NCBI GenBank assembly: GCA_964502925.1
Contig: CAZCYH010000008.1
Coordinates: 4,185-68,184 of the forward strand
Direction of reading: 5' to 3'
Length of the DNA: 64,000 nucleotides
Origin: an uncultured Leptospira sp.
Lineage (GTDB): Bacteria > Spirochaetota > UBA4802 > JAGODF01
The stretch's first letter is position 1. Every line of letters begins with the position of its first letter. The notes under the pieces are model-generated. The model was given only the letters and a program-made list of their open reading frames with translations. It ran no database searches and was not told where the DNA came from. Made by a program: the position numbers and the translations under genes. This document shows positions 5,533 through 41,705 of the stretch, piece by piece.

Positions 5533-6780
5533 ATGCCCGATGGTTCCGTGATTGAAGAGCCGCGCTATCGTCCCGCGTTTCGTACCGGTCGGTCAATAGT
5601 TCCGGTGGACCAAAACGAGCTTATTCCGCTTCCTTTCGGGAGCGTTCTTTTTTCTCTTCCGGGTCGTTTCCCGATATTTTACAATACGCGGGGCGAAGAA
5701 GTTATTGTCAAAACAGCATCCGGTTCGTCGCAGGAAATTTCCGCAGCCTCGGCGTTTGTAAGTTCCGGATATCTTCGCACCTATTTGCCCGCCTACGTGA
5801 AATCCGATTCCGCGCCGCCGCTTTCGCTGTGGGCTTATGCAGGTCTGGTAATTAAAAATGGCACATTCTGGGTTCCTGCGCTTCGAATTGATGAAGATCC
5901 CCGGTCGGATGCGCAGCTTCATCAAAACGATGACGAACTTCACCGAAACATAAAGGAAATGAAATTTTTCCTTAAGAGAAACAGGCTTGCATCGCAGCTT
6001 GCCCATTGTGCCACCGAATACCGCTGCCTCTGCGCCCGGAATTTTTTTCTGAGCCGTTTTGAAGCGCCCGTGCCGACAAGCCCTGCGTGCAATGCGAGAT
6101 GTATTGGCTGTTTATCGAAGCAGGAGGAAAGCGGGTTTTGCTCATCACAGGAGAGGCTCTCGTTTGCTCCAGCGCCGGAAGAAATTGCTGAGGTGATTCT
6201 CTATCATTTCGAACGTGTCGATGCCGCAGTGGCGAGCTTCGGCCAGGGCTGTGAAGGCGAGCCGCTTTTGCGCGGAAAAGACCTTGCGCGCGCTATTGCA
6301 CTGGTGCGTGAGAAGACGCCGCGTGGGACCATCAACCTGAATACCAATGGTTCCAGGCCAGACGAAGTGAAGCGCCTCATCGATGCGGGACTCGATTCAA
6401 TCCGCATTAGCCTGAACTCGCCCACGGAGGAATATTATACACGCTATTTCCGGCCTCAAGGGTATTCTTATAGCGATGTCATTCGTTCAATTGATATTGC
6501 ACTCGATGCGGGGATTTTCGTGTCGATCAATCTTTTCTTTTTGCCCGGGTTTACGGACATGGAATCGGAAGTGGATTCATTATTTGCGTTTCTAAAAAAG
6601 TTTCCCGTGTCGATGATACAGGCGCGCAATCTCAACATCGATCCCGACCTGTATCTTGATTCCATTGGATTTTGTGAATCAAAACCATTGGGTATCCGTT
6701 CGCATCTGTCGATGCTTTCTGCCGGTTTTCCGAAAATGAAAATTGGATACTACAATCCGCCAAAGGAGAGATTTCAATGA
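5533..6780 (+). CDS. Radical SAM protein with an uncharacterised ~170-aa N-terminal domain
   Basis: CX3CX2C motif CNARCIGC at nt 6088-6111. A typical radical-SAM core follows (GCEGEPLL, TINLNTNGSRPDEVKRLIDAGLDSIRISLNSP). The start is chosen at ATG 5533. The upstream part of the track ORF (from 5287) overlaps the 5217 ORF and reads as low-complexity R/K junk. The stop overlaps the cooC start (ATGA at 6777-6780). Confidence 0.7.
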   Translation: MPDGSVIEEPRYRPAFRTGRSIVPVDQNELIPLPFGSVLFSLPGRFPIFYNTRGEEVIVKTASGSSQEISAASAFVSSGYLRTYLPAYVKSDSAPPLSLWAYAGLVIKNGTFWVPALRIDEDPRSDAQLHQNDDELHRNIKEMKFFLKRNRLASQLAHCATEYRCLCARNFFLSRFEAPVPTSPACNARCIGCLSKQEESGFCSSQERLSFAPAPEEIAEVILYHFERVDAAVASFGQGCEGEPLLRGKDLARAIALVREKTPRGTINLNTNGSRPDEVKRLIDAGLDSIRISLNSPTEEYYTRYFRPQGYSYSDVIRSIDIALDAGIFVSINLFFLPGFTDMESEVDSLFAFLKKFPVSMIQARNLNIDPDLYLDSIGFCESKPLGIRSHLSMLSAGFPKMKIGYYNPPKERFQ

Positions 6781-7550
6781 AAATCGCAATCACGGGCAAA
6801 GGCGGCGTTGGCAAGACAAGCATTGCCGCGGCAATCGCGCTCATTCTGGCAGAACGCGGGCACAGGGTTCTGGCGGTCGATGCCGATCCCGACACGAACC
6901 TTGCCTCAGCGCTCGGCATTCCCTATGCTGAGCATGGCGGGATACGAACCATTGCGCTGGAAAAAGAGCTTATTGAAGAGCGAACAGGTGCACGCGCTTC
7001 TGGTGGGATCTTTAAGCTGAACCCTGAGGTTTCCGATATCGCCGAAAAATTTGCCTTCCGCTATCGAAACGTTGATCTTGTGGTGCTCGGTGCCGTGCGT
7101 ACCGGAGGTGGTGGATGCGCATGCCCCGAAAGCGCGTTTCTGCGTTCTTTAGTGCAGGAACTGGTTTTGAGAAGGGATGAACATCTCGTGCTCGATATGG
7201 AGGCCGGCATTGAGCATCTTGGAAGGGCTACCGCACGGGGCGTGGATGCATGTATCGCGGTTGCGGAACCCGGCGCGCGGTCCATCGCAACAGTCCGGCG
7301 CATCGCGCAGATGGCAGAACAGATCGGCATCATGCGCACATACGTTATTATCAATGCTATCAGAAACGCCGGGGACGCGGGATTTTTAAAAGCGGGACTT
7401 TCCGATTTTGAGATAGTAGGGGAAATACCGTATCATGAAGCGATACGCGACAATGACAGAGATGGCCGGGCGGTGATCGATGAGTTGCCCGATGAAATTC
7501 GATCATATTTTGACGCGCTTGTCGAACGACTTTTAGTAAAATTTTCTTGA
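6777..7550 (+). CDS. cooC: CooC/AcsF-family Ni-insertion ATPase (CODH/ACS maturation), copy 1
   Basis: 257 aa. Deviant Walker A ITGKGGVGKTS, then DADPDTNL, and a C-x-C metal motif (GGGCACPES). Translationally coupled to the upstream radical SAM gene. Confidence 0.9.
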   Translation: MKIAITGKGGVGKTSIAAAIALILAERGHRVLAVDADPDTNLASALGIPYAEHGGIRTIALEKELIEERTGARASGGIFKLNPEVSDIAEKFAFRYRNVDLVVLGAVRTGGGGCACPESAFLRSLVQELVLRRDEHLVLDMEAGIEHLGRATARGVDACIAVAEPGARSIATVRRIAQMAEQIGIMRTYVIINAIRNAGDAGFLKAGLSDFEIVGEIPYHEAIRDNDRDGRAVIDELPDEIRSYFDALVERLLVKFS

Positions 7551-7689: not shown

Positions 7690-8742
7690 ATGAAAGAAAG
7701 ATTTTTAGCTACTGCCATTGGAAGCTTTCCCCACGATGATGCAAAAAAAGCGGTGGATATTATCCTTGAAACAATGCCCGAAGCGCCGGTATGGCCGCAG
7801 CTTCCGAAAATCGGACTCACCGAGCAGATGGAGATTCAGTATTCGGAAGGCATGCCGAGCGCGATTATCGATTCCGAAAAGGGACGAATGTATTTCGATA
7901 CCTCCGGCGATTACTCTGAAGAGCTTGCTGCTTTTTATGAGTCGTATATGAATGCGGTCGAAGGTGACGGCGATCTCTCGGCTTTTGTGATATCGCCGAA
8001 ATATTCAAGGGGTATTTATGAACTTAATTCCCGGCTTTCGCAGGATGGAAAAAAATATTCCTATGTGAAGGTGCATACCACCGGACCCTGTTCATTTTCG
8101 CTTACCGTGGTTGATGAACAGAAGCGAGCGATTTACTATAATGAAGAATTTCGCGATGTGGTGGTGAAAGCGCTTTCTATGAAGTGCCGATGGCAAATTC
8201 GAACATTCGCCCCTCTGGCGGAAAAAATCATCTGCTTCATTGATGAGCCCATCCTTTCGGCATTCGGTTCATCGACCTATATTTCTGTCAAACGCGACGA
8301 TGTGGTATCGCTCATCCGTGAAATGGTAGATGCCATTCACGCCGAAGGGGGAATTGCCGGTGTGCACTGCTGCGGCAATACCGAGTGGCCAATTCTCATC
8401 GAAGCCGGCGTGGATATCCTGAATTTAGACGCCTATCTGTATGGCGACACAATTGCGCTGTATCCCGAAGCGGTGAACAACTTTATTGCGCGCGGCGGAA
8501 CGATTGCCTGGGGAATTGTTCCAACCTCGGTGAGCATTCGAAATGAAAGCGCAGCTTCTCTGGAAAAGCGATTTGATGAGCTCGTGGCGCATCTTTCAAA
8601 GAAAAGCGGTATCGCTTCCGATGTGCTCTATGAACGCGCGATAATCACACCGTCATGCGGGACGGGCTCTATGAGCGTTGATGATGCCGAGCGGGTCTTT
8701 CACACGTTACATGAGCTTTCGAACGCGCTAAAAAAGCGTTAA
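7690..8742 (+). CDS. MetE-C-terminal-like (UroD/MetE superfamily, 'core-MetE'-like) zinc methyltransferase
   Basis: 350 aa from ATG 7690 (AAGGAG RBS 7 nt upstream; the track ORF starts earlier at 7573). Blocks resemble the cobalamin-independent methionine synthase catalytic barrel: CFIDEPIL (cf. IQIDEPA), GVHCCGN (His-x-Cys Zn ligands), and TPSCGTGS (distal Cys ligand). Confidence 0.7.
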   Translation: MKERFLATAIGSFPHDDAKKAVDIILETMPEAPVWPQLPKIGLTEQMEIQYSEGMPSAIIDSEKGRMYFDTSGDYSEELAAFYESYMNAVEGDGDLSAFVISPKYSRGIYELNSRLSQDGKKYSYVKVHTTGPCSFSLTVVDEQKRAIYYNEEFRDVVVKALSMKCRWQIRTFAPLAEKIICFIDEPILSAFGSSTYISVKRDDVVSLIREMVDAIHAEGGIAGVHCCGNTEWPILIEAGVDILNLDAYLYGDTIALYPEAVNNFIARGGTIAWGIVPTSVSIRNESAASLEKRFDELVAHLSKKSGIASDVLYERAIITPSCGTGSMSVDDAERVFHTLHELSNALKKR

Positions 8743-8753
8743 GGCGTAAGATC

Positions 8754-9503
8754 ATGTCCTATACCATCGCGATAACCGGCAAGGGCGGTACGGGCAAGAC
8801 GACCATCGCTGCGCTCATCGTTGTGGCAATGACACGGGCGGGCAAACGTCCGGTGCTGGCAGTGGATGCCGATCCCAATGCCTGTCTCGATGTGGCGCTG
8901 GGTGTTGAAGCGAAAAACACGGTGGGGCAATTGCGCGAGGATGCGCGAATACTTGCATCGGAGCATCCCGATATTTCAAAGCGCGAGCTTTTAGAGTTGA
9001 AGATTTCCGAAAGCCTAGTGGAAGGTGAGGATTTTGATCTCATTGCGATGGGGCGACCGGAAGGGCCGGGATGCTATTGCTACGCGAACAATGTGCTGCG
9101 CGAGGTACTGAAAGAAGTTTCTGATAATTATCCATATGTAGTTATCGACAATGAAGCGGGGCTTGAAAATCTCTCGCGCAGAATTGTGCGCCGCGTGGAC
9201 GCGCTTTTAGTGGTGGGGGAGCCGTCGCGAAACGGTATCGCGACGCTGCATCGGATACAGGCGCTTGCCGCAGAAATGAATATTGAATATGGGAAGCTCA
9301 TTGCGGTGATAAACCGGGTATATGAGGTAAAAAAATCCTATGATGACGTGAAGAAGGAAATGGGAGCGGACGGAATTGTTCTTCTGCCTCATGATGATGA
9401 AATACGAATGTTGAACGAAGCGGGAAGAAGTTTTTTTTCGCTACCGGAAAAAAATGCGGTATATCAAAAGGTGCGCGATGAGATCGTGGCGCCAGTAAAA
9501 TAA
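8754..9503 (+). CDS. cooC: CooC/AcsF-family Ni-insertion ATPase, copy 2
   Basis: 249 aa. ITGKGGTGKTT Walker A, DADPNACLD, and a C-x-C motif (GPGCYCYAN). It is paralogous to copy 1. Two paralogs are the usual pattern where one serves CODH and one serves ACS. Confidence 0.9.
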   Translation: MSYTIAITGKGGTGKTTIAALIVVAMTRAGKRPVLAVDADPNACLDVALGVEAKNTVGQLREDARILASEHPDISKRELLELKISESLVEGEDFDLIAMGRPEGPGCYCYANNVLREVLKEVSDNYPYVVIDNEAGLENLSRRIVRRVDALLVVGEPSRNGIATLHRIQALAAEMNIEYGKLIAVINRVYEVKKSYDDVKKEMGADGIVLLPHDDEIRMLNEAGRSFFSLPEKNAVYQKVRDEIVAPVK

Positions 9504-9522: not shown

Positions 9523-11472
9523 ATGGAAAAGGAAAAGAAAAGAGCACAAGACCGCGCAGTCGATTCTGCATCAATAGCCATTATCGAGAAAGCGGAGAAG
9601 GATAATGTTCGCGTGAGCTTTTTCCGCATGGATGAGCAGGGAGCCCAGTGTGGCTTCGGGACAAGCGGCGTGTGCTGCCGCATCTGCCACATGGGGCCGT
9701 GCCGCATCAGCGCGAAAGCAAAATTCGGCGTCTGCGGTGCCGATGCGGATACCATCGTCGCGCGCAATTTTCTTCGCGAGGTGGCGGCAGGATGCGCCGC
9801 ACATTCAGATCACGCGCGGCATCTGGTACTGCTTCTGAAAAAGGTCGCGCAGGGGAAAGCGGGCAATTATGCGCTCAAAGATCGCGATGCGCTGCATCGC
9901 GTGGCGAAAAAATACGGCGTAGCCATTGAGCAGAGAAATGACGCCGAAATTGCCTCTGAACTTGCCGATGTCCTTCTTGGGGAATTCACCGCGCAGGAGG
10001 AACATTTAAAAACGCTGAAACTTGCGCCGGAAAAACGCCAGAGGTTGTGGGAAAAACTGGAAGTTGAGCCGCATGGAGTGGACCGGATGATTGTGGAATC
10101 GCTTCACCGCACGCACATGGGCGTCGATCACGACTACGCGCATATTCTGATGCACGCGTTTCGCGCGTCACTATCCGACGGGTGGGGCGGCTCGCGCATC
10201 GCGAGCCAGGTTTCCGACATCCTCTTCGGTACGCCAGCGCCCGTGCGCTCGATGGCGAATTTAGGGGTGCTTGGAGAGCGTACAGTGAACGTGGTGGTGC
10301 ACGGGCATGAGCCCGCGCTTTCCGAAATGCTTGCGGCTGCTTCAAAAGATCCCGAAATCATTGAGGCGGCAAAAAAGGTGGGGGCGGAAGGCATCACGCT
10401 TGCGGGAATCTGCTGTACCGCCAATGAAATTCTCATGCGCCACGGGATTCCCGTCGCGGGAAATTTTCTTCAACAGGAGCTGGCAGTCGTCACAGGTGTG
10501 GTTGAGGCGCTCATCATCGATGTGCAATGCTGTATGCCGGGACTGGCTGAGGTGGCGGCATCATACCATACCGAAATCATTTCTACCAGCGATATTGCGC
10601 ACACAGTGGGAGCAGTTTCCGTCCAGTTCACCGCAGAAGAAGCCTATGATGGCGCAAAACGCATTCTTCTACGCGCTATAGAAAATTTTGTGCGCAGAGA
10701 TTCATCGAAAGTGTTCATACCGAAAGAAGCGAAACCCCTTGTCGCGGGCTTCAGCGTGGAAGCCATCCGCTACATGCTCGGCGGACGATTCCGTGCTTCG
10801 TATCGGCCACTCAACGACGCCATCATGCAGGGGAGAATTCGGGGCGTGGCGGGCATTGTGGGATGCAATAATCCCAAGCAGAAACTGGATGAGTACATCG
10901 ATACACTCACCGAGGAACTTCTTAAGCGAAATGTGCTGGTGCTCAAAACCGGATGCGCGGCAATCGCCTCGGCGAAGGCGGGCTATCTCACGCCGGAGAC
11001 TGCGCTGCGGCAGGCAGGGGCGGGGCTGCGCGAAGTCTGCGAAGCAATCGGCATGCCGCCGGTTTTGCATATGGGAAGCTGTGTGGACAATTCGCGCATT
11101 TTAGAGGCTGCCACTGAAATCGTATTTGAAGGCGGTTTGGGCGATGATCTGTCGATGATTCCCGCGGTTGGAGTGGCGCCGGAATGGATGAGTGAGAAGG
11201 CCATTGCCATCGCCATGTATTTCGTGGCATCGGGAATTGATGTGATACTCGGCCATCCCTTTTATATTTCCGGCTCAAAGAACGTGATGCGCTTTTTGAA
11301 TGAAGAATCGAAAAATATTTTTGGTGCGTCATTTCATGTGTACGATGATCCATGTGAGGCGGCGGATGCGATTATGGAAATCATTGAGCGGAAGCGCGAC
11401 GCGCTCGGCATCAACCAGCGCACGGAACGGAAACTTTTCGATATGAAGGACAGGAGGCAGCTCAGTGTCTAA
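9523..11472 (+). CDS. cooS: Ni-dependent carbon monoxide dehydrogenase catalytic subunit (CooS/AcsA)
   Basis: 649 aa. N-terminal D/B-cluster cysteine motifs (QCGFGTSGVCCRICHMGPCRI...FGVCGAD). Hybrid-cluster-fold blocks run throughout (VHGHEPALSEM, TLAGICCTANE, HMGSCVDNSR). Confidence 0.95.
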   Translation: MEKEKKRAQDRAVDSASIAIIEKAEKDNVRVSFFRMDEQGAQCGFGTSGVCCRICHMGPCRISAKAKFGVCGADADTIVARNFLREVAAGCAAHSDHARHLVLLLKKVAQGKAGNYALKDRDALHRVAKKYGVAIEQRNDAEIASELADVLLGEFTAQEEHLKTLKLAPEKRQRLWEKLEVEPHGVDRMIVESLHRTHMGVDHDYAHILMHAFRASLSDGWGGSRIASQVSDILFGTPAPVRSMANLGVLGERTVNVVVHGHEPALSEMLAAASKDPEIIEAAKKVGAEGITLAGICCTANEILMRHGIPVAGNFLQQELAVVTGVVEALIIDVQCCMPGLAEVAASYHTEIISTSDIAHTVGAVSVQFTAEEAYDGAKRILLRAIENFVRRDSSKVFIPKEAKPLVAGFSVEAIRYMLGGRFRASYRPLNDAIMQGRIRGVAGIVGCNNPKQKLDEYIDTLTEELLKRNVLVLKTGCAAIASAKAGYLTPETALRQAGAGLREVCEAIGMPPVLHMGSCVDNSRILEAATEIVFEGGLGDDLSMIPAVGVAPEWMSEKAIAIAMYFVASGIDVILGHPFYISGSKNVMRFLNEESKNIFGASFHVYDDPCEAADAIMEIIERKRDALGINQRTERKLFDMKDRRQLSV

Positions 11473-14400
11473 GATCATCAGCAGTGCGGCCATTGATGGT
11501 GCCATCGCGTGGGTTGCGCGCGCGGAAAAGAAACTGGATGAAGTTATCCTGACTAAGGGAGAAGATGCTGCGGTTGCTTTCCCTGATACAGCCTACTATC
11601 TTCCCATTATTTATTCGTTTACCGGGAAAAAAGTTGCGACGCTTGCCCACTGCCGAGAGGTGTTGCGGGAGGCGAAAGAACTCTTGCCGCAAAGGCCTTC
11701 AGAACATGTGTGGCTGCCGTATCTGGGAAACGCGCTTGATGCGGGCGTGGCAGCGCTTTTTGCCTGCGAAATAATCGAAGCGTGCAAATATCTCATTGGA
11801 CCAAATCCGGTTGAAGGCATCTGGCTCGGTGCCGCGAACGATATCATCATGCGGGAGCGGGGAGTGGAATTCGTGGACGGGACCGCGCCTGGATTTGCAG
11901 CGGTAACCGGCGCAGCACCCTCGAATGACATTGCGGTGAAGATTGCGCGCGAACTTCAGGAAAAAAATCTCTATGTGTTTATGGCCGGCTCCACAAATGG
12001 AAGACAATTTGCAGAGCAGCTTGCCGAAGAAGGGGTGCAGCTCGGATGGGAGACGCGGCTTGTTCCCTATGGCAGGGATGTGTCGGCGCTGGTGTATGCG
12101 CTCGGTTTTGCAAACCGTGCAGCGCTTTCGTTTGGAGGAGTCAGGCCCGGAGATTATGCGGGCAATCTGCGCTATAATAAAAACCGCATCATGGCCTTTG
12201 TCCTTGCCTTTGATGAAGTCGATGCCGATAAATACGCTCTTGCTGCAGGTGCCATCAACTACGGCTTTCCGGTGATTGCCGATACTGCCATCCCGCAGAT
12301 TCTTCCTACTGGCGTGTGCACCTACGAGCACGTGGTGTCATCGGTTCCCTATGAGAAAATAGTGGAGCGCGCGCTTGAAGTGCGCGGCTGCAAGGTGAAA
12401 ATCACCAGAGTGCCCATTCCCGTTCCATACGGCCCCGCTTTCGAAGGCGAGCGGATACGCAAACAGGACACGCATGCGGAATTCGGCGGGAATATCACCA
12501 CCGCATTTGAATTCGTCACCATGGTGGGTATGGACGAAATCGAAGATGGCGAAATTGAAATCATCGGCAAAGACATCGACGAAATAGAAGCTGGGAGCGC
12601 ACTGCCGCTCGGCATATGGGTTGAGGTGGCGGGAAGAAAGATGCAGCCGGATTTTGAATCAATCTTAGAGCGGCAAATCCATCATCTCATCAACGGCGCA
12701 GAAGGCATCTGGCACATGGGGCAGCGCGATATCGTATGGACGCGCGTCTCGAAAAGCGGATTTGCCAGAGGCCTGCGGTTGCGGCATTATGGCGAAATTC
12801 TTCATGCGCAGTTTCTTTCCAATTATCCTGCCATTGTCGATAAAGTCAAAGTGACGCTCATCACCGATGCAGAAGAAGCGGAGCGGCGCGTTGCAATTGC
12901 CCGGAAGGTATATCGGGAGCGCAATCAGCGCCTTGCTTCAATGACCGATGAATCCGTCGATACATTTTATTCGTGTCTTCTCTGCCAGAGCTTTGCGCCG
13001 AACCACGTATGCGTCATCACCCCTGAACGGCTGGGCCTCTGCGGTGCGTACAACTGGCTCGACGGAAAAGCGGCATACGAAATCGACGAAACCGGGCCGA
13101 ATCAGCCGGTGAAGAAAGGCACGGTCATCGATCCGGGCCGGGGAATTTTCACCGGCGTCGATGAGTACGTCTATTCCAATTCGCATAAAAAAGTCGAAAG
13201 TTTCAGCATGTATTCCATCATGCACAATCCCATGACCAGCTGCGGCTGTTTTGAAGTGATTCTTGCCTACGTGCCCGAGTGCAATGGTGTGATGGCAGTC
13301 AACCGCGAGTACACCGGCGATACGCCCGTTGGAATGACCTTCTCCACGCTTGCGGGCAATGTGGGCGGGGGCATGCAGACGCCGGGCTTCATGGGCTGCG
13401 GCAAGGTGTATCTCACATCGAAAAAATTTGTTTATGCAGAGGGAGGGCATAAACGCCTGGTGTGGATGACCACTGATCTGAAGCAGATGGTGGGCGATGA
13501 CATGAAAAAGCTTTTCGCAGAATTGGGGCTTGATGGCCTTTTTGAGAAAATTGCTGATGAAACCATATCGGCGAACCCCGCAGAAATACGACAATTCATG
13601 GAAAAAAATGAGCATCCCGCGCTCGAAATGGACGATATGGCTCTCTATGCCGAAATGGAGAGCACGCCCCGGGAGACAATTGTCCCTGAGAAAGAAGAAG
13701 CGGGTGAGATAAAAAAAGCGCAAGAGGTGCATGATGAAACGGTGCATCCAGTAAGCGAAACGCGCACGATGCCGCACTCTGTGGATGTGGAGGCACTGAA
13801 GAGAGAACTCTTTGCCGAGCTTCGTGATGAAATGAAGAAAGCCATCACGAAGGAAGTGGTATCGGAGATCATCAGCGTTTTAGAGGAAAAGTTTCTTGGC
13901 GCAAAACGGCCTGCTTCACCGGGTAATGTTTCCGTGGAAGAAAAAAGAGATCAGGTGCCTTTAAGCGAATCCGGGCATCCGCATCCGAAACCGTCTGAAA
14001 GAATTTCCGCGATTCAATCCTTTCCGATTCCAAAAGAATCCTTCAGCGGCGCGGTGCACCGTGTGAAAATTGGTGCCACGAAAGCGGAAGGCGGCACGCG
14101 GGGACGAACGTATGAAATCGGCGGCGCGAATACCATGCCCTTCCATCACTGGGAAGGCATTATGCCGAACCGTCCGCTTATGGCGATGGAAGTCTTCGAC
14201 CGGGTTGGAGAGAAATATCCACAGGCACTCAAAGACGTCTGGGGTGAATTATTATTAGATCCGGTGCGCATGGCAAAGGCGTGCGTGGAAAAATATGGTG
14301 CGGATCTCATAAGCGTGCGTCTTGATGGCACGCATCCCGAGCGCGGAAATTATTCTCCCGAAGATTCGCTTAAGCTGGTGAAATCGGTTCTTGCGGCAGT

Positions 14401-14980
14401 GGATGTGCCGCTTGTCATTACGGGGCACAATCACTATGAAAAGATGAATGCGGTGATGAAGGAAATCGCCGCGGGGTGTGCTGGTGAAAATCTGCTTTTG
14501 AACTGGGCAGAGCAGGACAATTATCGTGTGATAGCAGGCGCCGCGATAGCGTACGGGCATACGGTGGTGGCGCAAAGCCCCATTGATGTGAATATTTCCA
14601 AGCAGCTCAACATTTTGCTTACGGGAATGGACGTGCCTATTAATCGCATCGTCGTCGATCCGCTCACCGGCGCGATGGGTTACGGTATCGAATACACCTA
14701 TTCCGTAATGGAGCGCATTCGCCTCACGGGCCTCGGCGGCGACGCAATGCTGCTTTCGCCCATGATTGTGTCCCCTGGACAGGAATGCGCCCGCATCAAG
14801 GAACTGCGCGCCGAAGAGATAGAGTTTCCTTCCTGGGGCGATCTGAAAAAGCGCGCGGCGCTGTGGGAACTTTCCACCGCCACGGCATTGCTCTATGCCG
14901 GGGCTGATATCCTCATCATGTATCATCCTGAAGCCGCGGGTGCTTTGAAAAAATCAATCATGCAGCTTATGGAGAAGTAA
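11465..14980 (+). CDS. acsB: Acetyl-CoA synthase (AcsB/CdhC, A-cluster subunit) fused to a C-terminal CFeSP small-subunit-like (AcsD/CdhD-like) TIM-barrel domain
   Basis: 1171 aa. GTG start overlaps the cooS stop. The AcsB part (about aa 1-720) is bacterial-type with a long N-terminal domain. It carries the [4Fe4S] ligand block CLLCQSFAPNHVCVITPERLGLCGA and the proximal-Ni Cys-Gly-Cys motif MTSCGCFE. An Asp/Glu/Lys-rich linker of about 130 aa follows. The last ~310 aa (…LISVRLDGTHPERGNY…VPLVITGHNHYEKMNAVMKEIAAG…VVDPLTGAMGYGIEYTYSVMERIR…) resemble the CdhD/AcsD corrinoid-protein TIM barrel. Confidence 0.9.
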   Translation: MSKIISSAAIDGAIAWVARAEKKLDEVILTKGEDAAVAFPDTAYYLPIIYSFTGKKVATLAHCREVLREAKELLPQRPSEHVWLPYLGNALDAGVAALFACEIIEACKYLIGPNPVEGIWLGAANDIIMRERGVEFVDGTAPGFAAVTGAAPSNDIAVKIARELQEKNLYVFMAGSTNGRQFAEQLAEEGVQLGWETRLVPYGRDVSALVYALGFANRAALSFGGVRPGDYAGNLRYNKNRIMAFVLAFDEVDADKYALAAGAINYGFPVIADTAIPQILPTGVCTYEHVVSSVPYEKIVERALEVRGCKVKITRVPIPVPYGPAFEGERIRKQDTHAEFGGNITTAFEFVTMVGMDEIEDGEIEIIGKDIDEIEAGSALPLGIWVEVAGRKMQPDFESILERQIHHLINGAEGIWHMGQRDIVWTRVSKSGFARGLRLRHYGEILHAQFLSNYPAIVDKVKVTLITDAEEAERRVAIARKVYRERNQRLASMTDESVDTFYSCLLCQSFAPNHVCVITPERLGLCGAYNWLDGKAAYEIDETGPNQPVKKGTVIDPGRGIFTGVDEYVYSNSHKKVESFSMYSIMHNPMTSCGCFEVILAYVPECNGVMAVNREYTGDTPVGMTFSTLAGNVGGGMQTPGFMGCGKVYLTSKKFVYAEGGHKRLVWMTTDLKQMVGDDMKKLFAELGLDGLFEKIADETISANPAEIRQFMEKNEHPALEMDDMALYAEMESTPRETIVPEKEEAGEIKKAQEVHDETVHPVSETRTMPHSVDVEALKRELFAELRDEMKKAITKEVVSEIISVLEEKFLGAKRPASPGNVSVEEKRDQVPLSESGHPHPKPSERISAIQSFPIPKESFSGAVHRVKIGATKAEGGTRGRTYEIGGANTMPFHHWEGIMPNRPLMAMEVFDRVGEKYPQALKDVWGELLLDPVRMAKACVEKYGADLISVRLDGTHPERGNYSPEDSLKLVKSVLAAVDVPLVITGHNHYEKMNAVMKEIAAGCAGENLLLNWAEQDNYRVIAGAAIAYGHTVVAQSPIDVNISKQLNILLTGMDVPINRIVVDPLTGAMGYGIEYTYSVMERIRLTGLGGDAMLLSPMIVSPGQECARIKELRAEEIEFPSWGDLKKRAALWELSTATALLYAGADILIMYHPEAAGALKKSIMQLMEK

Positions 14981-15076: not shown

Positions 15077-15991
15077 ATGCTTCACGCATATAAAATAGCA
15101 AACGGTGCGATAGTCCCAGCGAACGAGGAATCGGCGCCGATACTGGTGTATATCAACCCCACTATTGAAGAAAAGGATCTTCTGGTGGGAAATTACAATA
15201 TCGATTCGCACACCCTGCAGTCCGCGCTCGACCCCGATGAGCTTTCCCGGCTGGAGTTTGAGCCCGATCATGCCGCCGTCATTCTCAAACGCCCGCAGAA
15301 TTATTCTGCTGCCGATGAATTCCTTTTTAAAGTTTCATCAATCGGCATTTTCTGGTACCGGGAGCGCGTCATCATTCTCCTCATGGAAGATATACAGCTT
15401 TTCGACGGCAAAATTTTCTCGAAAGTGAATTCAATCGGCGATCTGGTGCTGAAAATTATATTGCGCATTATCTATCATTATATCGATCACCTGAAAGTTA
15501 TCAACATGATTTCCGATTCGCTCGAGCAGAAAATCAATACCTCCATGCGCAATAAATATCTCATCAATCTTTTCACGCTCGAAAAAAGTTTGGTCTATTA
15601 TCTCAATGCCATCAATTCGAATGCGACAGTGATAGAGCGCATAAAAAACAATCGCGCGCGCCTTGCGCTTGAAAATGAGCAGATTGAAATGCTGGACGAT
15701 ATCATCATCGAAAATACGCAGTGCCAGAAACAGGCGGAAATCTATTCGAACATTCTTGCCGGCCTCATGGACGCGCGCGTCTCAATCGTCAGCAACAATC
15801 TCAATATCCTCATGAAAACCTTAAACCTCATCACCATCGCCATCATGGTGCCTACCTTCGTGGTGAGTGCGTTTTCCATGAACGTGGCGATTCCCATGCA
15901 GCACTATCCGCATGCCTTCTGGATCATCATGGCGCTTGCGCTTATATCTGTGCTGACGTTTATGTTCTTCTGGCGCCTCAAAAAGTGGTGA
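15077..15991 (+). CDS. CorA-family divalent-metal (Mg/Co/Ni) transporter with a non-canonical SMN motif in place of GMN
   Basis: 304 aa. A soluble N-terminal CorA-like domain, then two C-terminal TM helices separated by FSMNVAIP at the position of the canonical YGMNF. Basic C-terminus (WRLKKW). Confidence 0.7.
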   Translation: MLHAYKIANGAIVPANEESAPILVYINPTIEEKDLLVGNYNIDSHTLQSALDPDELSRLEFEPDHAAVILKRPQNYSAADEFLFKVSSIGIFWYRERVIILLMEDIQLFDGKIFSKVNSIGDLVLKIILRIIYHYIDHLKVINMISDSLEQKINTSMRNKYLINLFTLEKSLVYYLNAINSNATVIERIKNNRARLALENEQIEMLDDIIIENTQCQKQAEIYSNILAGLMDARVSIVSNNLNILMKTLNLITIAIMVPTFVVSAFSMNVAIPMQHYPHAFWIIMALALISVLTFMFFWRLKKW

Positions 15992-16010: not shown

Positions 16011-17102
16011 TCACAGGCTTTTTTGCGGGTGCCGTAAAATGTGCAGTGCGGTCGCTTTGAATGAAGCGGTTACCGTGCTTTTTTCTTGTAATCCGAGCTC
16101 GGAAAGTGAGTGCGGCGTGATATATGCAATGAGCTTAAATCCGCAATCGAGCGAAACGCGCACATGCGTGCCTGCATGAGTGATGCTGCATACCTTTGCC
16201 TCGAATGAATTGCGCATGCTGCTAGATGCATTTTTATCTTTTGAAATAACGATATGCTCGGGGCGTATTCCGAGTGTTACCATTTTGCCTTTATGCGCTG
16301 CGCCTGAAACTTCAATTGCTCTGCCGGAAACCTCGACAGTAAAACCGCCATTAAAAACATCAACGACGGTTCCGGAAAGAATTGTTTCAACACCCATGAA
16401 CGATGCAATGAATTCATCGGCGGGATTGCTGATGATGTCAGCCGGAAAGCCTTCTTGAATCACGCGGCCATTTCTCAGCACCACAATCCTGTCGGCCAGA
16501 CGAAGCGTTTCGTCGCGATCGTGGCTGATAAATATGACACCGCATTGGACATGGCGCAGCATTTTTTCGAAATCATCAAGCATGGAATCGCGGGCCAATG
16601 TATCGAGCGCTGAAAACGGTTCGTCCATGAGCAGGAGTTTTGGCTTTAGTATCAGGGAACGCGCGAGGGATACACGGCGCGCTTCTCCTGCAGAAAGAGT
16701 GTGTGAGCGGCGATGAAGCAGATGCGCAATGCCGAACATATCGGCGAACTCATGTACTTTTCGTTTGATTTCACTGGCAGGCAATTTTCGAATTTTCAAA
16801 CCGAGTGCGATGTTCTCACCTGCCGTTGTGTTCAAAAGCAAAGGTTCCTGAAAGAGCATGGTGATGGATTTTCGACGATCGTACAGAGCGCGGATATCAT
16901 GAATTGGAATTTCGTCGAATATGAGATCAAGCTCGCGTACTTTAATAAGGCCAGCAAGTGCCAGAAGCAGTGTAGTTTTTCCCGCGCCATTGTGCCCGAT
17001 AATTGCGATGCTTTCGCCGACGTGAAGGCGGATATTATTGACCGAAAGTGTGAATTGGCCAATTTGCGCCGTTATTTTTTGAATATCGAGCAGCGATTTC
17101 AT
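16011..17102 (-). CDS. tupC: ABC transporter ATP-binding subunit with C-terminal TOBE/Mop domain (tungstate/molybdate type, TupC/ModC-like)
   Basis: 363 aa. Walker A GHNGAGKTT, signature LSAGEARRVSLARS, Walker B LLLMDEP. A C-terminal ~110-aa TOBE-like beta domain is present. Confidence 0.8.
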   Translation of the reverse strand: MKSLLDIQKITAQIGQFTLSVNNIRLHVGESIAIIGHNGAGKTTLLLALAGLIKVRELDLIFDEIPIHDIRALYDRRKSITMLFQEPLLLNTTAGENIALGLKIRKLPASEIKRKVHEFADMFGIAHLLHRRSHTLSAGEARRVSLARSLILKPKLLLMDEPFSALDTLARDSMLDDFEKMLRHVQCGVIFISHDRDETLRLADRIVVLRNGRVIQEGFPADIISNPADEFIASFMGVETILSGTVVDVFNGGFTVEVSGRAIEVSGAAHKGKMVTLGIRPEHIVISKDKNASSSMRNSFEAKVCSITHAGTHVRVSLDCGFKLIAYITPHSLSELGLQEKSTVTASFKATALHILRHPQKSL

Positions 17103-17104
17103 GG

Positions 17105-17803
17105 TTATTTCATGCGTCCTTTTTGCTGCACATACGACAGGAAATAGTTCACGGCAAAAGAAAGAACCAGCAGAATGATGCCGAACGCAATGGCAGTGTC
17201 GAAATTTCCGCGCGATGTTTCCATCACGGTGGCGGTGGTGAGTACGCGGGTTGAACCTTTGATGTTGCCGCCCACCATCATTGAGGCGCCCACTTCGCTT
17301 ATCACGCTTCCAAAACCTGCCATAATTGCCGCAAGAAGTGGCAGGCGTGCCTGACGGTAGAGGATGAAAAGCGACTGCAGGTGTGAAGCGCCGAGTGCAA
17401 AAATTTGAAGGCGAAAATTTTTTGGTACCTGCTGCAGCGCCGAAAGCGTTATGCCCGTCACCATAGGGGTGGCGATGAGCACCTGCGCAATAATGATGGC
17501 AAGAGGTGTATAGAGGATTTCAAAATCGCCGAACACTCCCCCGCGCCAGAGCATAAGCGTGGTGAAAAGCCCTACTACCACAGGGGGAACGCCCATGCCG
17601 GTGTTGACAAGACCGACCACAAAGGTTCGACCGGGAAATTCGTTGAGCGCAATTGCACTGCCGATGGCGATGCCGATGATTGAACTGATGATGGTGGATG
17701 TAATCGTCACCTCGAGTGTGAGAAAAAGCACCTCGTAGACTTCGCGATCGAACGATGCGATGAGGGCAATAGCTTTTTGTAATCCTTCAAGAATGAGTTC
17801 CAT
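17105..17803 (-). CDS. tupB: ABC transporter permease (TupB/ModB-like)
   Basis: 232 aa polytopic membrane protein with an EAA-like loop region (…GASMMVGGNIKGSTRVLTTAT…). It is adjacent to the ATPase and the binding-protein gene. Confidence 0.8.
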   Translation of the reverse strand: MELILEGLQKAIALIASFDREVYEVLFLTLEVTITSTIISSIIGIAIGSAIALNEFPGRTFVVGLVNTGMGVPPVVVGLFTTLMLWRGGVFGDFEILYTPLAIIIAQVLIATPMVTGITLSALQQVPKNFRLQIFALGASHLQSLFILYRQARLPLLAAIMAGFGSVISEVGASMMVGGNIKGSTRVLTTATVMETSRGNFDTAIAFGIILLVLSFAVNYFLSYVQQKGRMK

Positions 17804-17805
17804 GG

Positions 17806-18681
17806 TTATTTCCGATCGTTCTTATATATTGGAATAAAGAGAGATTCGCCAAATGTTTTTTTCCCGAATTGGGCGATGATGTTTTGTGCTCCTGGTGAAA
17901 ACAGGTAGTCTGCGAATAATTGTGCTTCCTTCGATCTGATACGAGGAAACCGGGTCGGATTGATTTCAATAACAGAATATTCATTGAATAGCATTTCTTC
18001 GTTTTCCCACACAATTGTAAGGGATAGATTTCTTTTAAGAACAGCCCAGGTTGCTGAATCGGTCAGCGTATAGCCGTTTTTTTCCGATGCAATCGAAAGA
18101 GTTTCTCCCATGCCCAAACCCGTTTCCTGATACCATGTACGACCATCAGGCATTATAGCAGCTTTTTTCCAGATTTCGCGCTCCGCATAATGCGTGCCGG
18201 AATTATCTCCGCGGGAAATGAAAATCGCTTCCTTCTGGATGATTGCGCGGAATGCATCGGTTGGCGTAATTGCGCGGTGTATCTGTGCAGGATCATTCGG
18301 AGGGCCGACGATTATAAAAGAATTTTTCATCAATCCCCGGCGTCGGATTCCATAGCCCTCATTCATGAAGCGCTCTTCTTCGGCTGGCGAATGTGCAAGG
18401 AGAATATCGGCTTCGCCGCGCTTTCCGAGAGCCATGGCTTTGCCTGATCCAACCGCAATCACTTTTACCCTGATGCCGTGTTCCTGTTCAAAAGGGGGAA
18501 TGAGTTCATCCAGAATACCACTGTCCTGCACGCTGGTGGTGGTAGCAAGTATGATGGAAGGCTTTTTCGTGCAGGAGCAAAATGCGATCGAAGTAATAAA
18601 TAGTGCACCGAAAGCAATTATATGACGCAAATAGGGAACACGGGAAAATTCAATATGTGTAGCGCCGTGGCTGGTGTTCAT
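17806..18681 (-). CDS. tupA: Periplasmic oxyanion-binding protein, TupA-like (tungstate/molybdate)
   Basis: 291 aa. Signal peptide/lipobox (FCSC). The mature protein has the TTTSVQDSGILDEL block characteristic of TupA-type tungstate binders. PBP fold look (…VIAVGSGKAMALGKRGEADILLAHSP…). Confidence 0.7.
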   Translation of the reverse strand: MNTSHGATHIEFSRVPYLRHIIAFGALFITSIAFCSCTKKPSIILATTTSVQDSGILDELIPPFEQEHGIRVKVIAVGSGKAMALGKRGEADILLAHSPAEEERFMNEGYGIRRRGLMKNSFIIVGPPNDPAQIHRAITPTDAFRAIIQKEAIFISRGDNSGTHYAEREIWKKAAIMPDGRTWYQETGLGMGETLSIASEKNGYTLTDSATWAVLKRNLSLTIVWENEEMLFNEYSVIEINPTRFPRIRSKEAQLFADYLFSPGAQNIIAQFGKKTFGESLFIPIYKNDRK

Positions 18682-19653: not shown

Positions 19654-20826
19654 TCACGCATGCTGCGATTCAATAAGCCTTCTGAAATATCTGCAGTTTT
19701 CAACCAGGTCATTGCTGTGCCGGAAAAGTCCGCCGCCCACTAAATAGATGACATCATCTCCGTAAAGCTGTAGCATTTCAGGAATACGTTCCATCGTCAT
19801 GCCGCCGCCAGGGGTGGGAAAAATTGGCCGCATGCTTCCAAGCTCTTCGGTGCATGCACGCACAATTGCCGCACAGTCCTTGCGGCTGAAAGAAAATCGT
19901 CCCCCGAAGTTCGGGTAGATGGTGGCATCGGCGCCTGCGATGCGGCACAGAGTTCCGAACAGGCAGGAGGGCGAGATGCCGTTTTGGTTGATTGCAAATG
20001 ATCCCACAAATGCAGGATGCGCAATCAGGGGAAGCTCGATCTTTTCATGGGCGGCTAGCATGCGCATGGCATCGAAACCGACAAGTCCAGGTGCAATTAA
20101 AAGTGCGCCTGCGCCATATTCCTTCGCAAACATTGCGCGCTCAAGTAGTTCGTCGCACGGTGCGGTGATATTCGGCGCGTAGATGGCATTGCCCCCTGTT
20201 TTTGCATTCGCGTTATAAATCGATTCGGCGCAGCGGGAGACGCGCTCTTTGAAGCAGGCAAAGGGCTGATTGGTAAGCCCGTGATCGTCCTTGATGATAT
20301 CGATGCCGCCAAGCGCGAATTGGTAGGCAAGCTCAGCCAATCCTTTCGATGAAAGCCCCATGGGTTTGAGTGCGGTGGCAAGCAGCTGCCCTGATTGGCG
20401 ATGCAACATATTTCGCAAGCCTGAAATTCCGAATCGCGGACCGGTGAACATTTTCAAAAGCGCCGGTGGAAGCTCTACGCGTTCAAGCCGTATGCCGGGT
20501 TTGAGGCTGATATTCCCGAAAAGTACGTTTAGAAGTTGTGTGAACTCGCACGCGGTAATATCGACGGAAAAGCTTATGAGCGCATAATACGCACCATCTA
20601 TTTGTTCAAAGCGTTCGATGCGTCCAAATACTGAATTGCGGATAAAACCGTTCGGAATGAGATCTTCTGGAAATTCAATCGTCTGCTTAATGCAGATATC
20701 CGCAGCGTGTTCGCGCGCTTCGTGCTCGTTGCCGGCAAGGCGATAGAGTGCAAAAAAGCGTTCCGTGGAATCACTGGAAACAGTGTGTGCGGCAATGAAC
20801 TCGTGAAAGAACTCTTTGCTGTTCAC
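19654..20826 (-). CDS. RubisCO large-subunit-like protein (form IV RLP-type; KDDH instead of KDDE)
   Basis: 390 aa. RubisCO large-chain blocks: LKPMGLSSKG (cf. KPKLGLS), GGIDIIKDDH (cf. GGLDFTKDDE; the carbamylated Lys and Asp are kept, but Glu is replaced by His), LIAHPAF (cf. HIHRAMHAV; Arg295 replaced), and LVGGGLFRHSND (cf. GGGTLGHPWG). The start overlaps the upstream transketolase-C stop by 4 nt. Confidence 0.85.
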   Translation of the reverse strand: MNSKEFFHEFIAAHTVSSDSTERFFALYRLAGNEHEAREHAADICIKQTIEFPEDLIPNGFIRNSVFGRIERFEQIDGAYYALISFSVDITACEFTQLLNVLFGNISLKPGIRLERVELPPALLKMFTGPRFGISGLRNMLHRQSGQLLATALKPMGLSSKGLAELAYQFALGGIDIIKDDHGLTNQPFACFKERVSRCAESIYNANAKTGGNAIYAPNITAPCDELLERAMFAKEYGAGALLIAPGLVGFDAMRMLAAHEKIELPLIAHPAFVGSFAINQNGISPSCLFGTLCRIAGADATIYPNFGGRFSFSRKDCAAIVRACTEELGSMRPIFPTPGGGMTMERIPEMLQLYGDDVIYLVGGGLFRHSNDLVENCRYFRRLIESQHA

Positions 20827-21830
20827 AGCGCCTCGGCGTTTACGCTTCCCGATATTTCAGAAAGGCGGATTTCAGCAAGCTCGTCTTCAGTGATGCGAAA
20901 AGATGCGCCAAGTATTGCTTCGATGTTGCGTACAAGTGCCATTGCGTCGAGGCCGTATTCTTTTTTCAAATAGGGCAGGCTTGCGCCGTGGGCGAAGGTA
21001 TCACGCAGTCCGATGCGCACGAGCTTTTTGCCGATGCCATGCTCGGCCATCATTTCCGCAACGGCGCTTCCAAGTCCGCCGATGGTGGTATGATTTTCCA
21101 TGGTGATGACGCCACAGCGCGCCTTATCGATTGCGTCTAATACGAGTGGATCATTGAATGGTTTCAGCGTGGCGATGTGCAGATGGGAAATTGAAACGCC
21201 GCGAAGTTTGAGTGCCTCTGTTGCACGCAGCGCCTCTTCCGTGCAGATGCCCGAAGAAAAGAGTGCAATGTCGCTGCCGCGCGAGATGACGCGCGCTTTA
21301 CCGAAGATGAGGGGATTGTCGTCACCGAAAAGCTTTGGTATTTCACCGCGCAGCATTCGGACATACACTGGTCCTTGAATGGATGCGGCTACATCCAGAA
21401 TCGTTTTGACATCGGTAGCGTCACCAGTTTCAAGCACAGTCATGTTGGGAAGAGAACGCATTACTGCAATGTCTTCAATTGCCTGATGCGTCGCTCCGCC
21501 CGGGGTGGTAATGCCAGGAAGAAAGCCGAACATTTTGACGGGAAGATTCGGATACGCGACCGACATTGCAATCTGATCAAACGCGCGGCGATAGATAAAC
21601 ACCGCGAAGGTATGTACCAGCGGCAAAAATCCCTCGCGCGCCAATCCCCCCGCAAATGAAAGCATATTCTGCTCGGCAATGCCCATGGAAAGAAAGCGAT
21701 CGGGATAGGTCTCGCGAAAAAGGTCGATTTCAGTGGAACTCGTGAGATCGGCCGAAAGTACCAGCGCTTCGGGATGATCTTTCGCCCATTTAACTAAATT
21801 TTTCGCATGTACTTTGCTTGCAATTTCCAT
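20823..21830 (-). CDS. Transketolase, C-terminal subunit (split transketolase)
   Basis: 335 aa. Pyrimidine-binding/C-terminal domain blocks (GIAEQNMLSFAGGLAREGFLPLVHTFAVF; PGITTPGGATHQAIEDIAVMRSLPNMTVL). Confidence 0.85.
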   Translation of the reverse strand: MEIASKVHAKNLVKWAKDHPEALVLSADLTSSTEIDLFRETYPDRFLSMGIAEQNMLSFAGGLAREGFLPLVHTFAVFIYRRAFDQIAMSVAYPNLPVKMFGFLPGITTPGGATHQAIEDIAVMRSLPNMTVLETGDATDVKTILDVAASIQGPVYVRMLRGEIPKLFGDDNPLIFGKARVISRGSDIALFSSGICTEEALRATEALKLRGVSISHLHIATLKPFNDPLVLDAIDKARCGVITMENHTTIGGLGSAVAEMMAEHGIGKKLVRIGLRDTFAHGASLPYLKKEYGLDAMALVRNIEAILGASFRITEDELAEIRLSEISGSVNAEAL

Positions 21831-21835
21831 GATAA

Positions 21836-22771
21836 TTATTCAATAGTATTAAAAAATGAAAGCTTTTGCTCGAACTCTTTTCGCTCCTGTTCGGATGAAA
21901 AGCGCACGTAGTGAAATTTCGGCGCGCGCGACCGCAAAAACTCCATATCCCTGCACGGATCGGTATCGCACAGCACGATTGTGGGTTTATCATCCGCGAT
22001 GCGTGTGCCGCATTCGATGAGTTTATCGATATTATGCCCGTCAATTCTAAACACGCGCATGCCGAACGCTTCAAGCCGTGTGTGCAATGGCTCAATGTTC
22101 ATCACATGTTCAACCCTGCCATCGCACTGGTGGCCGTTGATATCGACAAAGATGAGTATGTTGTGAAGCTTGTGAAAGACAATTGCCTGAATTGCTTCCC
22201 ATGTCTGGCCAATCTGAAATTCGCCATCGGACATAAAGAGCACATTTCGGCCTGTTTCTCCTTTGCGCTTCCGCGCCATGGCGATACCAGCAACCTGGCT
22301 GATTCCCTGGCCGAGAGAGCCGGTCATGATTTCCATTCCCGGCGAATGTTCCGCGCCGATCATCTCTAAAATGCCGCCGTCGCGGTTGAATTCTTCGAGT
22401 GCGTGTTCATCCATGCGTCCGGCTTCGATGAGCGCGGCGTACATCACAAGTGAATATTGCGACGGCGAAAGATAAAATCGGTCGAGTTCTGGCGATTTGT
22501 TGCCGTGGAATGCCGCGCCGGTTTTGTACTGCGGATTGGAATTGCCCGGCACGCCGGGGAATTTCCATGGAGCAAGCGCCATATCGAGTGGTGATAACCG
22601 AAGAATGGCGCCGTACAGCGAGGCAAAAATTTCGGCGGAAGAACATGCCTGGCATAAATAGCCGCCGTTGTTTTTAACAGTATGTTCAAGCACGCGGCGA
22701 CGTATTCCCTGCGCCATTTGAGAAATGCGAGAGGTTTTCATTTGCAGATGGTGTGATGATGAAGCATTCAT
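21836..22771 (-). CDS. Transketolase, N-terminal (TPP-binding) subunit (split transketolase)
   Basis: 311 aa. TPP-binding blocks (GGYLCQACSSAEIFASLY; GSLGQGISQVAGIAMARK; FMSDGEFQIGQTWEA). A 5-nt gap separates it from the C-terminal subunit gene. Confidence 0.85.
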   Translation of the reverse strand: MNASSSHHLQMKTSRISQMAQGIRRRVLEHTVKNNGGYLCQACSSAEIFASLYGAILRLSPLDMALAPWKFPGVPGNSNPQYKTGAAFHGNKSPELDRFYLSPSQYSLVMYAALIEAGRMDEHALEEFNRDGGILEMIGAEHSPGMEIMTGSLGQGISQVAGIAMARKRKGETGRNVLFMSDGEFQIGQTWEAIQAIVFHKLHNILIFVDINGHQCDGRVEHVMNIEPLHTRLEAFGMRVFRIDGHNIDKLIECGTRIADDKPTIVLCDTDPCRDMEFLRSRAPKFHYVRFSSEQERKEFEQKLSFFNTIE

Positions 22772-41517: not shown

Positions 41518-41705
41518 GTCGGAAGCTCCATGTGGTAATATGCATCCCGGCAGTAGCAATAATCGCAGTATGACGAGTCCGATTGCACACCTGGAAATGA
41601 ATTGCGTTCACACCGTTATAATAATTTTCTGCAATCTGCCGCGTTGATAACACAGTGGGTGGCGCATAATATATGTCAACAATAAATGTTGGTTTGTTCA
41701 GCAAC

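Follow-up and report, generated by a model that had tools for sequence, protein, structure and literature searches.

Which reaction is catalyzed by a small methionine-synthase-like protein encoded in the middle of a CO dehydrogenase/acetyl-CoA synthase (CODH/ACS) operon? The question is raised by a 64,000-nt stretch of DNA from an uncultured Leptospira sp. (contig CAZCYH010000008.1, positions 4,185 to 68,184; below, the window), where the open reading frame (ORF) 7690-8742 on the forward strand encodes a 350-aa protein, denoted here as X. Core methionine synthases are thought to draw methyl groups from the Wood-Ljungdahl pathway's corrinoid protein, but this donor role has never been demonstrated, and assays to date have used free methylcobalamin only, with a Km of about 240 uM, too high to be physiological. 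The reading that we favor, and consider reasonably probable, is that X is a folate-independent core methionine synthase of the MesB type, probably acting as a methyl-CoFeSP:homocysteine methyltransferase (CoFeSP, corrinoid iron-sulfur protein). Being co-transcribed with the CODH/ACS genes, the X gene offers a natural system for testing the transfer from CoFeSP to homocysteine.

Zinc site and probable homocysteine-binding residues

The ORF of X begins with ATG at 7690, with GGAG just before it, and comprises 350 codons, the stop codon ending at 8742. A longer GTG ORF from 7573 was rejected, since the homologues (350-358 aa) align from the Met at 7690 with 100% coverage.

The profile of X was aligned by hhalign with the C-terminal domain of E. 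coli MetE (the MetE numbering was checked), and conservation was counted in 144 representatives of the X family. Residues H226, C228, D247 and C323 of X fall on H641, C643, E665 and C726 of MetE, so that every MetE zinc ligand has its counterpart in X, with Asp replacing Glu in the third position. These four positions hardly vary within the family: Asp247 and Cys323 are found in all 144 representatives, His226 in 143, and Cys228 in 140. The alignment also pairs the KGxxTGP motifs, and the IDEP motifs with Asp185 of X on Asp599 of MetE. Ser12 is retained in 133 of the 144 representatives, Asp185 and Lys127 in 141 each. The IDEP, VHCCGN and SCGTG motifs, named in the original prediction made from the DNA sequence, are all present in the translation of X, and the lack of the N-terminal MetE barrel, also predicted, agrees with the protein length of 350 aa and with the only barrel in its AlphaFold2 (AF2) model.

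In MetE, homocysteine contacts are defined as Ser433, Glu484 and Asp599, with Gln replacing Glu484 in MesA and MesC (PMC7857596). The motif alignment of VWPQLP...EQMEIQY in X with VLVHGE...NDMVEYF in MetE suggests that Gln37 occupies the Glu484 position, and the alternation of Gln (137 of the 144 representatives) and Glu (5 representatives) in this position of the family is consistent with that.

The spacing of the His-Cys-Asp-Cys ligands in X is 2/19/76, identical to that of Q3Z939 MesB and of core-MetE from the CBDB1 strain of D. mccartyi. The zinc ligands are His215/Cys217/Asp236/Cys312 in the latter (PMC7005905) and HCDC 214/216/235/311 in the former, whose homocysteine contacts are Ser15 and Asp177 (PMC7857596).

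The KVHTTGP motif of X contains His129, and most family members have Gln here (KGQxTGP). The residues His129-Thr-Thr-Gly form an HxxG motif, with His and Gln alternating in this position within the clade of window-type proteins; in core-MetE of Dehalococcoidia, HxxG was put forward by Deobald et al. as a possible lower axial ligand of cobalamin (PMC7005905).

Kinship with MesB

Price et al. (2021) counted as MesB those proteins that reach at least 130 bits against DET0516 (Q3Z939) in phmmer (PMC7857596). X very probably reaches this score, as gauged by proxies. In particular, X is 41% identical over its full length (266 bits, E 1e-91) to P0482, a protein named 'methionine synthase [Dehalococcoidia bacterium]', and 37% identical (247 bits) to P0207 from Methanomassiliicoccales, whose functional residues occupy MesB positions minus 2 or 3; MesB is listed in Methanomassiliicoccales in Price's table (PMC7857596). 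A search seeded with a family member numbered like MesB returned proteins from Dehalococcoidia, Anaerolineae and Thermoplasmata that are named 'methionine synthase' by NCBI; they too have no Pfam or NCBIfam assignment.

X has the MesB residue set, that is, HCDC with the 2/19/76 spacing, Ser12 and Asp185, and the CoFeSP genes expected of a MesB host are represented by an AcsD-type CdhD barrel encoded in the window at 11465-14980. The only MesB assayed is that of D. mccartyi, shown to be a methylcobalamin:homocysteine methyltransferase that makes no use of methyl-tetrahydrofolate (methyl-THF) (PMC7005905). MesB is predicted to use CoFeSP, and AcsC or AcsD is found in all 123 MesB proteomes (PMC7857596). 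The zinc site, the single barrel and the relatives named as methionine synthases thus bear out the identification of X as a core-MetE-like methyltransferase.

Family and fold

With more than 5,400 homologues at E<=1e-3 in a word-indexed search and 434 clusters (50% identity) at E<=1e-30 in an exhaustive one, the observation is far beyond chance. Nearly all named members of the family are called 'hypothetical protein' by NCBI, and the JGI names are in some cases 'hypothetical protein', in others 'methionine synthase II (cobalamin-independent)'. Among 49 diverse family members, weak matches were obtained to NF002119 (23 members, best E 2e-10), Meth_synt_2 (PF01717; 6 members, best E 5e-5), MtbA (3 members) and URO-D (2 members, X not being among the URO-D matches).

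The AF2 model of X (pLDDT 97) consists of a single barrel. Fold comparison yielded values of 24.9 with 3rpd (MesD, a single-domain B12-independent methionine synthase), 24.1 with 1t7l (MetE from T. maritima), 22.2 with 1ypx, 19.4 with 4ay7 (MtaA), and about 19 with UroD, while in the Foldseek search MetE, UroD and MtaA are nearly tied (E about 1e-7). Judging from these values and the near-tie, X belongs to the MetE/UroD superfamily as a divergent protein, somewhat nearer to MetE. A 65-residue insert (residues 55-120) with a conserved FYE motif is specific to the X family.

X is not MetE in the Pfam/TIGRFAM sense, as both the hidden Markov model (HMM) threshold and the two-barrel architecture fail. 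Neither is it an MT2 or UroD protein, nor a relative of AcsE: no PF00809 match was found in X by Pfam, and no match by phmmer from the Moorella methyltransferase (MeTr).

Proposed mechanism

In the reaction that we propose for X, one (beta/alpha)8 barrel would hold Zn2+ by His226, Cys228, Asp247 and Cys323, and Ser12, Gln37 and Asp185 would hold the carboxylate and amino groups of homocysteine, with its thiolate on zinc. The activated thiolate would then take the methyl group from a methyl-Co(III) corrinoid, yielding methionine and Co(I). The donor in vivo would most likely be CoFeSP of the co-transcribed CODH/ACS, composed of AcsC and the AcsD domain fused to AcsB. Methyl-CoFeSP, in turn, could have two sources: the folate branch, by way of an AcsE whose gene is located at another site, or the cleavage of acetyl-CoA by ACS, a route proposed for Dehalococcoides. 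The analysis shows the fold, the set of ligands, the family kinship and the operon linkage; we infer the acceptor, the donor and the direction of the flux.

A link of MesB core synthases to the ACS corrinoid protein was proposed by Deobald 2020 (PMC7005905) and Price 2021 (PMC7857596), and the originally predicted methyl exchange with this corrinoid agrees with both proposals; as for the particular donor and acceptor, they are presumptive, and acsC is not among the genes of the window.

X in other genomes

A scan of one genome per GTDB species found relatives of X in at least 585 species from more than 10 phyla, and the context was counted in the best 80 of these, which share 56-71% identity with X and represent Spirochaetota, Planctomycetota, Verrucomicrobiota, Lentisphaerota, Acidobacteriota, Desulfobacterota, Bacteroidota, Fibrobacterota, Clostridia, among others. 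A CooC gene is present in 79 of the 80 loci (on the same strand within 400 nt of X in 70), CODH in 65, AcsB in 59, AcsC in 49, and RACo in 40, most missing neighbors belonging to loci whose flank ends before the gene would be reached (the exceptions are L047, L059 and L083).

The usual gene order is (PF02574 gene)-X-cooC-cooC-acsA-acsB::acsD-acsC-RACo-DUF3786, while cooC-X-cooC is found instead in the window and in the loci from Leptospirales and Planctomycetota. The acsB::acsD fusion (products of about 1160-1250 aa) recurs in some 50 related loci spread over many phyla, and in 49 related loci it is followed by acsC. Literature searches for an AcsB-AcsD fusion, and for DUF3786 together with ACS, returned nothing relevant. 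With the window proteins as reference, X has a median identity of 60%, CODH of 67%, AcsB of 75%, the AcsD domain of 68%, and the CooC proteins of 52-54%; X is thus conserved like a core component of the operon.

The proximity to cooC may also be read in another way, X being no methyltransferase in vivo but a factor for metal handling or maturation/repair whose targets, shared with the CooC ATPases, would be the Ni-Fe-S clusters of CODH/ACS, with His-Cys-Asp-Cys binding Ni or Zn. In favor of this are the closeness of the CooC gene in the 70 loci, the position of X between or ahead of the cooC genes, and the pairing of some distant relatives (35-43% identity) with a CooC-like gene, in these cases together with folD. 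Still, the full set of enzyme motifs (IGSFP, KGQxTGP, IDEP) has no rationale in a chaperone, many family members are encoded alone, with neither CODH nor CooC (distant ones, 33-43% identical, among them), and to our knowledge no maturation step of CODH/ACS requires an X-like protein. We regard such a role as very improbable.

A 27%-identical homologue of X, with the zinc ligands kept and the Gly-Ser of IGSFP missing, is encoded on the Desulfosarcina ovata plasmid NZ_AP021877.1 (L094, 8977-10005). Its cluster, related to nitrosative stress, encodes NorR, Crp/Fnr, a ZIP transporter, DUF1858, CBS and HPP proteins, FprA, and Hcp. This setting suggests a different role for remote members of the family. 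The neighboring ZIP metal transporter, DUF1858, FprA and Hcp, the last of which is related to CODH through the prismane family, could also be counted in favor of metal handling, but this is a single, very distant member devoid of the Gly-Ser motif.

Observations at odds with the assignment

Several observations weigh against X being a MesB-type methyl-CoFeSP:homocysteine methyltransferase. No curated model recognizes X: the Pfam scan yielded no match at E<=0.01, and the sole NCBIfam match is to NF002119 (archaeal methionine synthase), with 24.6 bits against the cutoff of 258. Of Meth_synt_2 and URO-D, the alternatives posed by the original prediction, X reaches the threshold of neither; it is not UroD proper, its zinc quartet being conserved. 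The kinship with MesB was gauged through two proxy sequences standing in for DET0516, the region of Gln37/Glu484 was called hard to align by Price et al., and the same authors caution that a distant MesB homologue may serve another purpose where the genome has other methionine synthases (PMC7857596). The corrinoid-binding subunit gene acsC was not found in the 64-kb window, and no S-adenosylmethionine (SAM) or B12 riboswitch was found upstream of X or in seven related loci. X is placed among the cooC maturation genes and not beside acsC or RACo. Finally, a stand-alone gene of a PF02574 homocysteine S-methyltransferase is present in 40 of the 80 loci and in 34 of those 40 adjoins X; its product (about 300 aa, E 6e-66, with the GGCCG zinc motif) looks redundant with X.

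In the PDB, neither the sequence of X nor a profile built from 49 sequences gave a sequence match.

The redundancy would be removed if homocysteine were left to the PF02574 enzyme, X being a zinc methylcorrinoid:thiol methyltransferase with another acceptor, such as a different small thiol, or a reverse, MT2/MtsA-like enzyme that loads CoFeSP from a methyl thioether. The other function allowed by Price et al. for distant MesB homologues, the near-equality of UroD and MtaA with MetE in the Foldseek search, the weak MtbA matches, and the family-specific insert with the FYE motif are all in line with this. It is difficult to reconcile, however, with the near-invariance across the X family of the Ser/Gln/Asp triad, which in MetE, MesA and MesC holds the amino-acid moiety of homocysteine, or with the closest named relatives of X being methionine synthases, and so we consider a different acceptor or the reverse reaction unlikely, though worth bearing in mind.

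The missing acsE gene

In all 14 model acetogens, acsE is reported to be clustered with acsBCD (PMC5039349). Moreover, bacterial CoFeSP is said to need AcsE, while archaeal CoFeSP does not (PMC13370988). Six-frame translations of the loci were searched with Moorella MeTr (identical to PDB 2e7f) and with the pterin domain of MetH, and none of the roughly 88 window-type loci (L004-L083, L085-L087) yielded an AcsE or pterin-binding homologue up to about 10 kb from X; nor did the 10 kb downstream of RACo in three loci. About 65 operons of this kind carry no acsE. The controls were positive: Moorella MeTr scores 53 bits against the pterin domain of E. coli MetH, and acsE was detected in L141 (see below).

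For these reasons, the replacement of AcsE by X, alone or together with the PF02574 protein, was considered seriously; in this role X would move methyl between methyl-tetrahydrofolate and CoFeSP. In addition, fhs or folD is found beside X in five loci. In L096 (1-10044), an unfused CODH-AcsB-AcsC-RACo-CooC-AcsD-X relative cluster without acsE, the end of acsD and the X-like gene after it (product 38% identical to X) share 4 nt; this slot is the acsE position of Carboxydothermus-type clusters, which counts in favor of the replacement.

As a general role, however, the replacement is weakened by L141 (4508-14362), identified by a metagenome scan with the L096-type relative. This unfused cluster has the order AcsB-AcsC-RACo-CooC-AcsD-AcsE-DUF166-X-like-HdrA/MvhD-MetV, so that a true acsE (product 36% identical to Moorella MeTr, 201 bits) and a relative of X (38% identical, 271 bits) share the same operon. 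Further, methyl transfer from pterin needs no zinc thiolate, yet the zinc ligands and the amino-acid-binding triad of X are invariant, and methyl-THF is no donor for the characterized MesB (PMC7005905). Pterin could also be handled by the AcsB-fused AcsD barrel, in the manner of archaeal CoFeSP (PMC13370988). Near X, there are only four fhs genes and one folD (five loci in total), and no metF. Since most folate-branch genes are missing there, acsE may be encoded elsewhere together with them. Altogether, X in place of AcsE seems to us quite improbable. According to the literature, T. primitia, considered here as a candidate host in culture, carries acsE in a cluster and is devoid of metF and metV.

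A broader interpretation is that the window-type operon is a distinct AcsE-independent CODH/ACS system or a self-contained module converting acetyl-CoA to methionine. In the first version, X, perhaps with the PF02574 protein or the AcsB-fused AcsD barrel, would move methyl between the folate branch and CoFeSP. In the second one, acetyl-CoA would be cleaved and its methyl group would pass via CoFeSP and X into methionine, that is, by the Dehalococcoides route supplemented with CODH disposing of CO; if true, this route would operate in many heterotrophic anaerobes that are not regarded as acetogens. We consider this interpretation doubtful.

The operon and other genes of the window

The genes between 5287 and 14980, X included (Table), are tightly packed and co-directional. 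The surroundings of X are as originally predicted: it is flanked by two genes of CooC-type P-loop ATPases and followed by CODH (TIGR01702, 629 bits) and ACS genes. The product of the last gene of the operon, with CODH_A_N, CdhC and ACS_CODH_B_C followed by a CdhD barrel, is, by its domain composition, identified as AcsB fused to an AcsD-like small CoFeSP subunit. The AcsD domain is thus the portion of the presumed methyl-donor protein that is encoded in the window.

The operon ends at 14980, and the next gene encodes a CorA transporter (15077-15991). The closest relatives (L004-L007, L085) carry acsC, RACo and DUF3786 immediately behind the fusion gene, and none of the RACo, DUF3786, acsE or PF02574 genes was found in the window (1-64000). 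As CorA stands where the relatives carry acsC, RACo and DUF3786, the operon is truncated or split in the window organism. A promoter/terminator scan gave nothing above the shuffled expectation.

Table. Coordinates of X, its motifs, the neighboring genes, and examples of PF02574 genes (the latter numbered within their own loci)
Feature	Coordinates	Strand	Basis
X, single-barrel MesB-like core methionine synthase homologue	7690..8742	+	ORF and homologues
IGSFPH motif; Gly11-Ser12 = MetE Gly432-Ser433 (homocysteine carboxylate)	7717..7734	+	Ser12 in 133/144; role of Ser433 from PMC7857596
WPQLP motif; Gln37 = probable counterpart of MetE Glu484	7792..7806	+	motif alignment to VHGE of MetE
KVHTTGP motif, residues 127-133	8068..8088	+	aligns with MetE KGxxTGP
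IDEP motif; Asp185 = MetE Asp599 (homocysteine amino group)	8239..8250	+	hhalign; 141/144
VHCCGN motif; His226 and Cys228 = MetE His641 and Cys643, zinc ligands	8362..8379	+	hhalign; conservation
LDAY motif; Asp247 = third zinc ligand, MetE Glu665 (Asp in MesB)	8425..8436	+	hhalign; 144/144
SCGTG motif; Cys323 = fourth zinc ligand, MetE Cys726	8653..8667	+	hhalign; 144/144
Radical SAM protein, 497 aa	5287-6780	+	domain scan
Upstream CooC/AcsF-type Ni-insertion ATPase, CAC motif	6777..7550	+	domain scan, CxC motif
Downstream CooC/AcsF-type ATPase, CYC motif	8754..9503	+	domain scan, CxC motif
Anaerobic Ni-CODH catalytic subunit (AcsA/CooS)	9523..11472	+	TIGR01702 629 bits, Prismane 539 bits
AcsB::AcsD fusion, 1171 aa	11465..14980	+	Pfam CODH_A_N, CdhC, ACS_CODH_B_C, then CdhD TIM barrel
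PF02574 gene examples	L076 1407-2318; L086 12616-13503; L087 567-1478		PF02574

The radical SAM gene shares 4 nt with the beginning of the upstream cooC. The radical SAM domain, with weak MoaA-like matches, is located at residues 263-426, and the N-terminal 260 residues belong to no family; a homologue about 8 kb upstream of X was found in only two related loci (L001/L004).

Positions 16011-18681 (reverse strand), just downstream of CODH/ACS, encode an ABC transporter that has a TOBE domain and is of the molybdate/tungstate type. A homologue of the RuBisCO large chain (390 aa, probably RuBisCO-like) is encoded beside split transketolase-like genes (19654-22771, reverse strand). The reverse strand also encodes an ADP-forming acetyl-CoA synthetase with CoA_binding, Succ_CoA_lig and ATP-grasp_5 domains (39430-41559), a possible acetyl-CoA/acetate route.

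Implications

The X family has no Pfam or NCBIfam model, and nearly all of its named members are labeled by NCBI as hypothetical proteins; hence, methionine synthesis is probably under-called in many metagenome-assembled genomes of anaerobes. The missing acsE is a concrete starting point for learning how CoFeSP gains or loses its methyl groups in non-model phyla. The original reading of X is correct, though not surprising to a specialist.

Comparison with known systems

The cobalamin-independent methionine synthase MetE (PF01717, TIGR01371; PDB 1t7l, 1u1j) shares with X the order of motifs, that is, IGSFP, KGxLTGP, IDEP, HxC, the acidic ligand, and C. X differs from it in lacking the N-terminal barrel, and in the alignment neither the GWVQSYGSR loop, which binds pterin in MetE structures, nor the His of DIHSP is found in X. 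Besides, X has Asp for Glu665 and Gln for Glu484, is about 15% identical to MetE, and falls under every HMM threshold.

MesA (NF002119/PRK00957), the methylcobalamin:homocysteine methyltransferase of archaea, and MesD (PDB 3rpd) are single-barrel core synthases, like X, and MesA also has Gln in the Glu484 position. However, their acidic zinc ligand is Glu, with the 22/61 spacing, compared to Asp and 19/76 in X, and MesD depends on MesX and oxygen (PMC7857596).

The MT2 proteins MtaA and MtbA, and UroD (PF01208), have a barrel of the same superfamily and resemble X in the HxC...C zinc-thiolate chemistry on a methylcorrinoid-protein donor, but the acceptor-binding residues of X are those of amino-acid-binding MetE-type enzymes. 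AcsE/MeTr (PF00809; PDB 2e7f), which, like X, would dock on CoFeSP, is an unrelated, zinc-free pterin-binding barrel without sequence similarity to X.

The closest likeness is to MesB, or core-MetE, of D. mccartyi (DET0516, cbdbA481): both are single barrels (about 345 aa in MesB) without the folate-binding N-domain, both have His-Cys-Asp-Cys with the same spacing, the Ser and Asp contacts with homocysteine and the KG(Q/H)xTG motif, with HxxG in X as in Dehalococcoidia, and both belong to hosts with CoFeSP, from which the methyl group is predicted to come. The differences are in spacing, X having 11 more residues between Ser and Asp and 4 more between Asp and His, and in the genomic setting, as mesB of D. 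mccartyi is located among SAM-cycle genes in a genome without CODH, AcsE and MetF, whereas X is inside a CODH/ACS operon between cooC genes.

The MesB kind of enzyme has already been described, as have the prediction that it uses CoFeSP and, for methanogens, clusters that join mesB with acsCD. What goes beyond the literature that we located is the clade in bacterial CODH/ACS operons (at least 585 species), with its invariable AcsB::AcsD fusion, frequent PF02574 partner and lack of acsE. Set against all these systems, X very probably works like a MesB-type core methionine synthase, and very probably is one.

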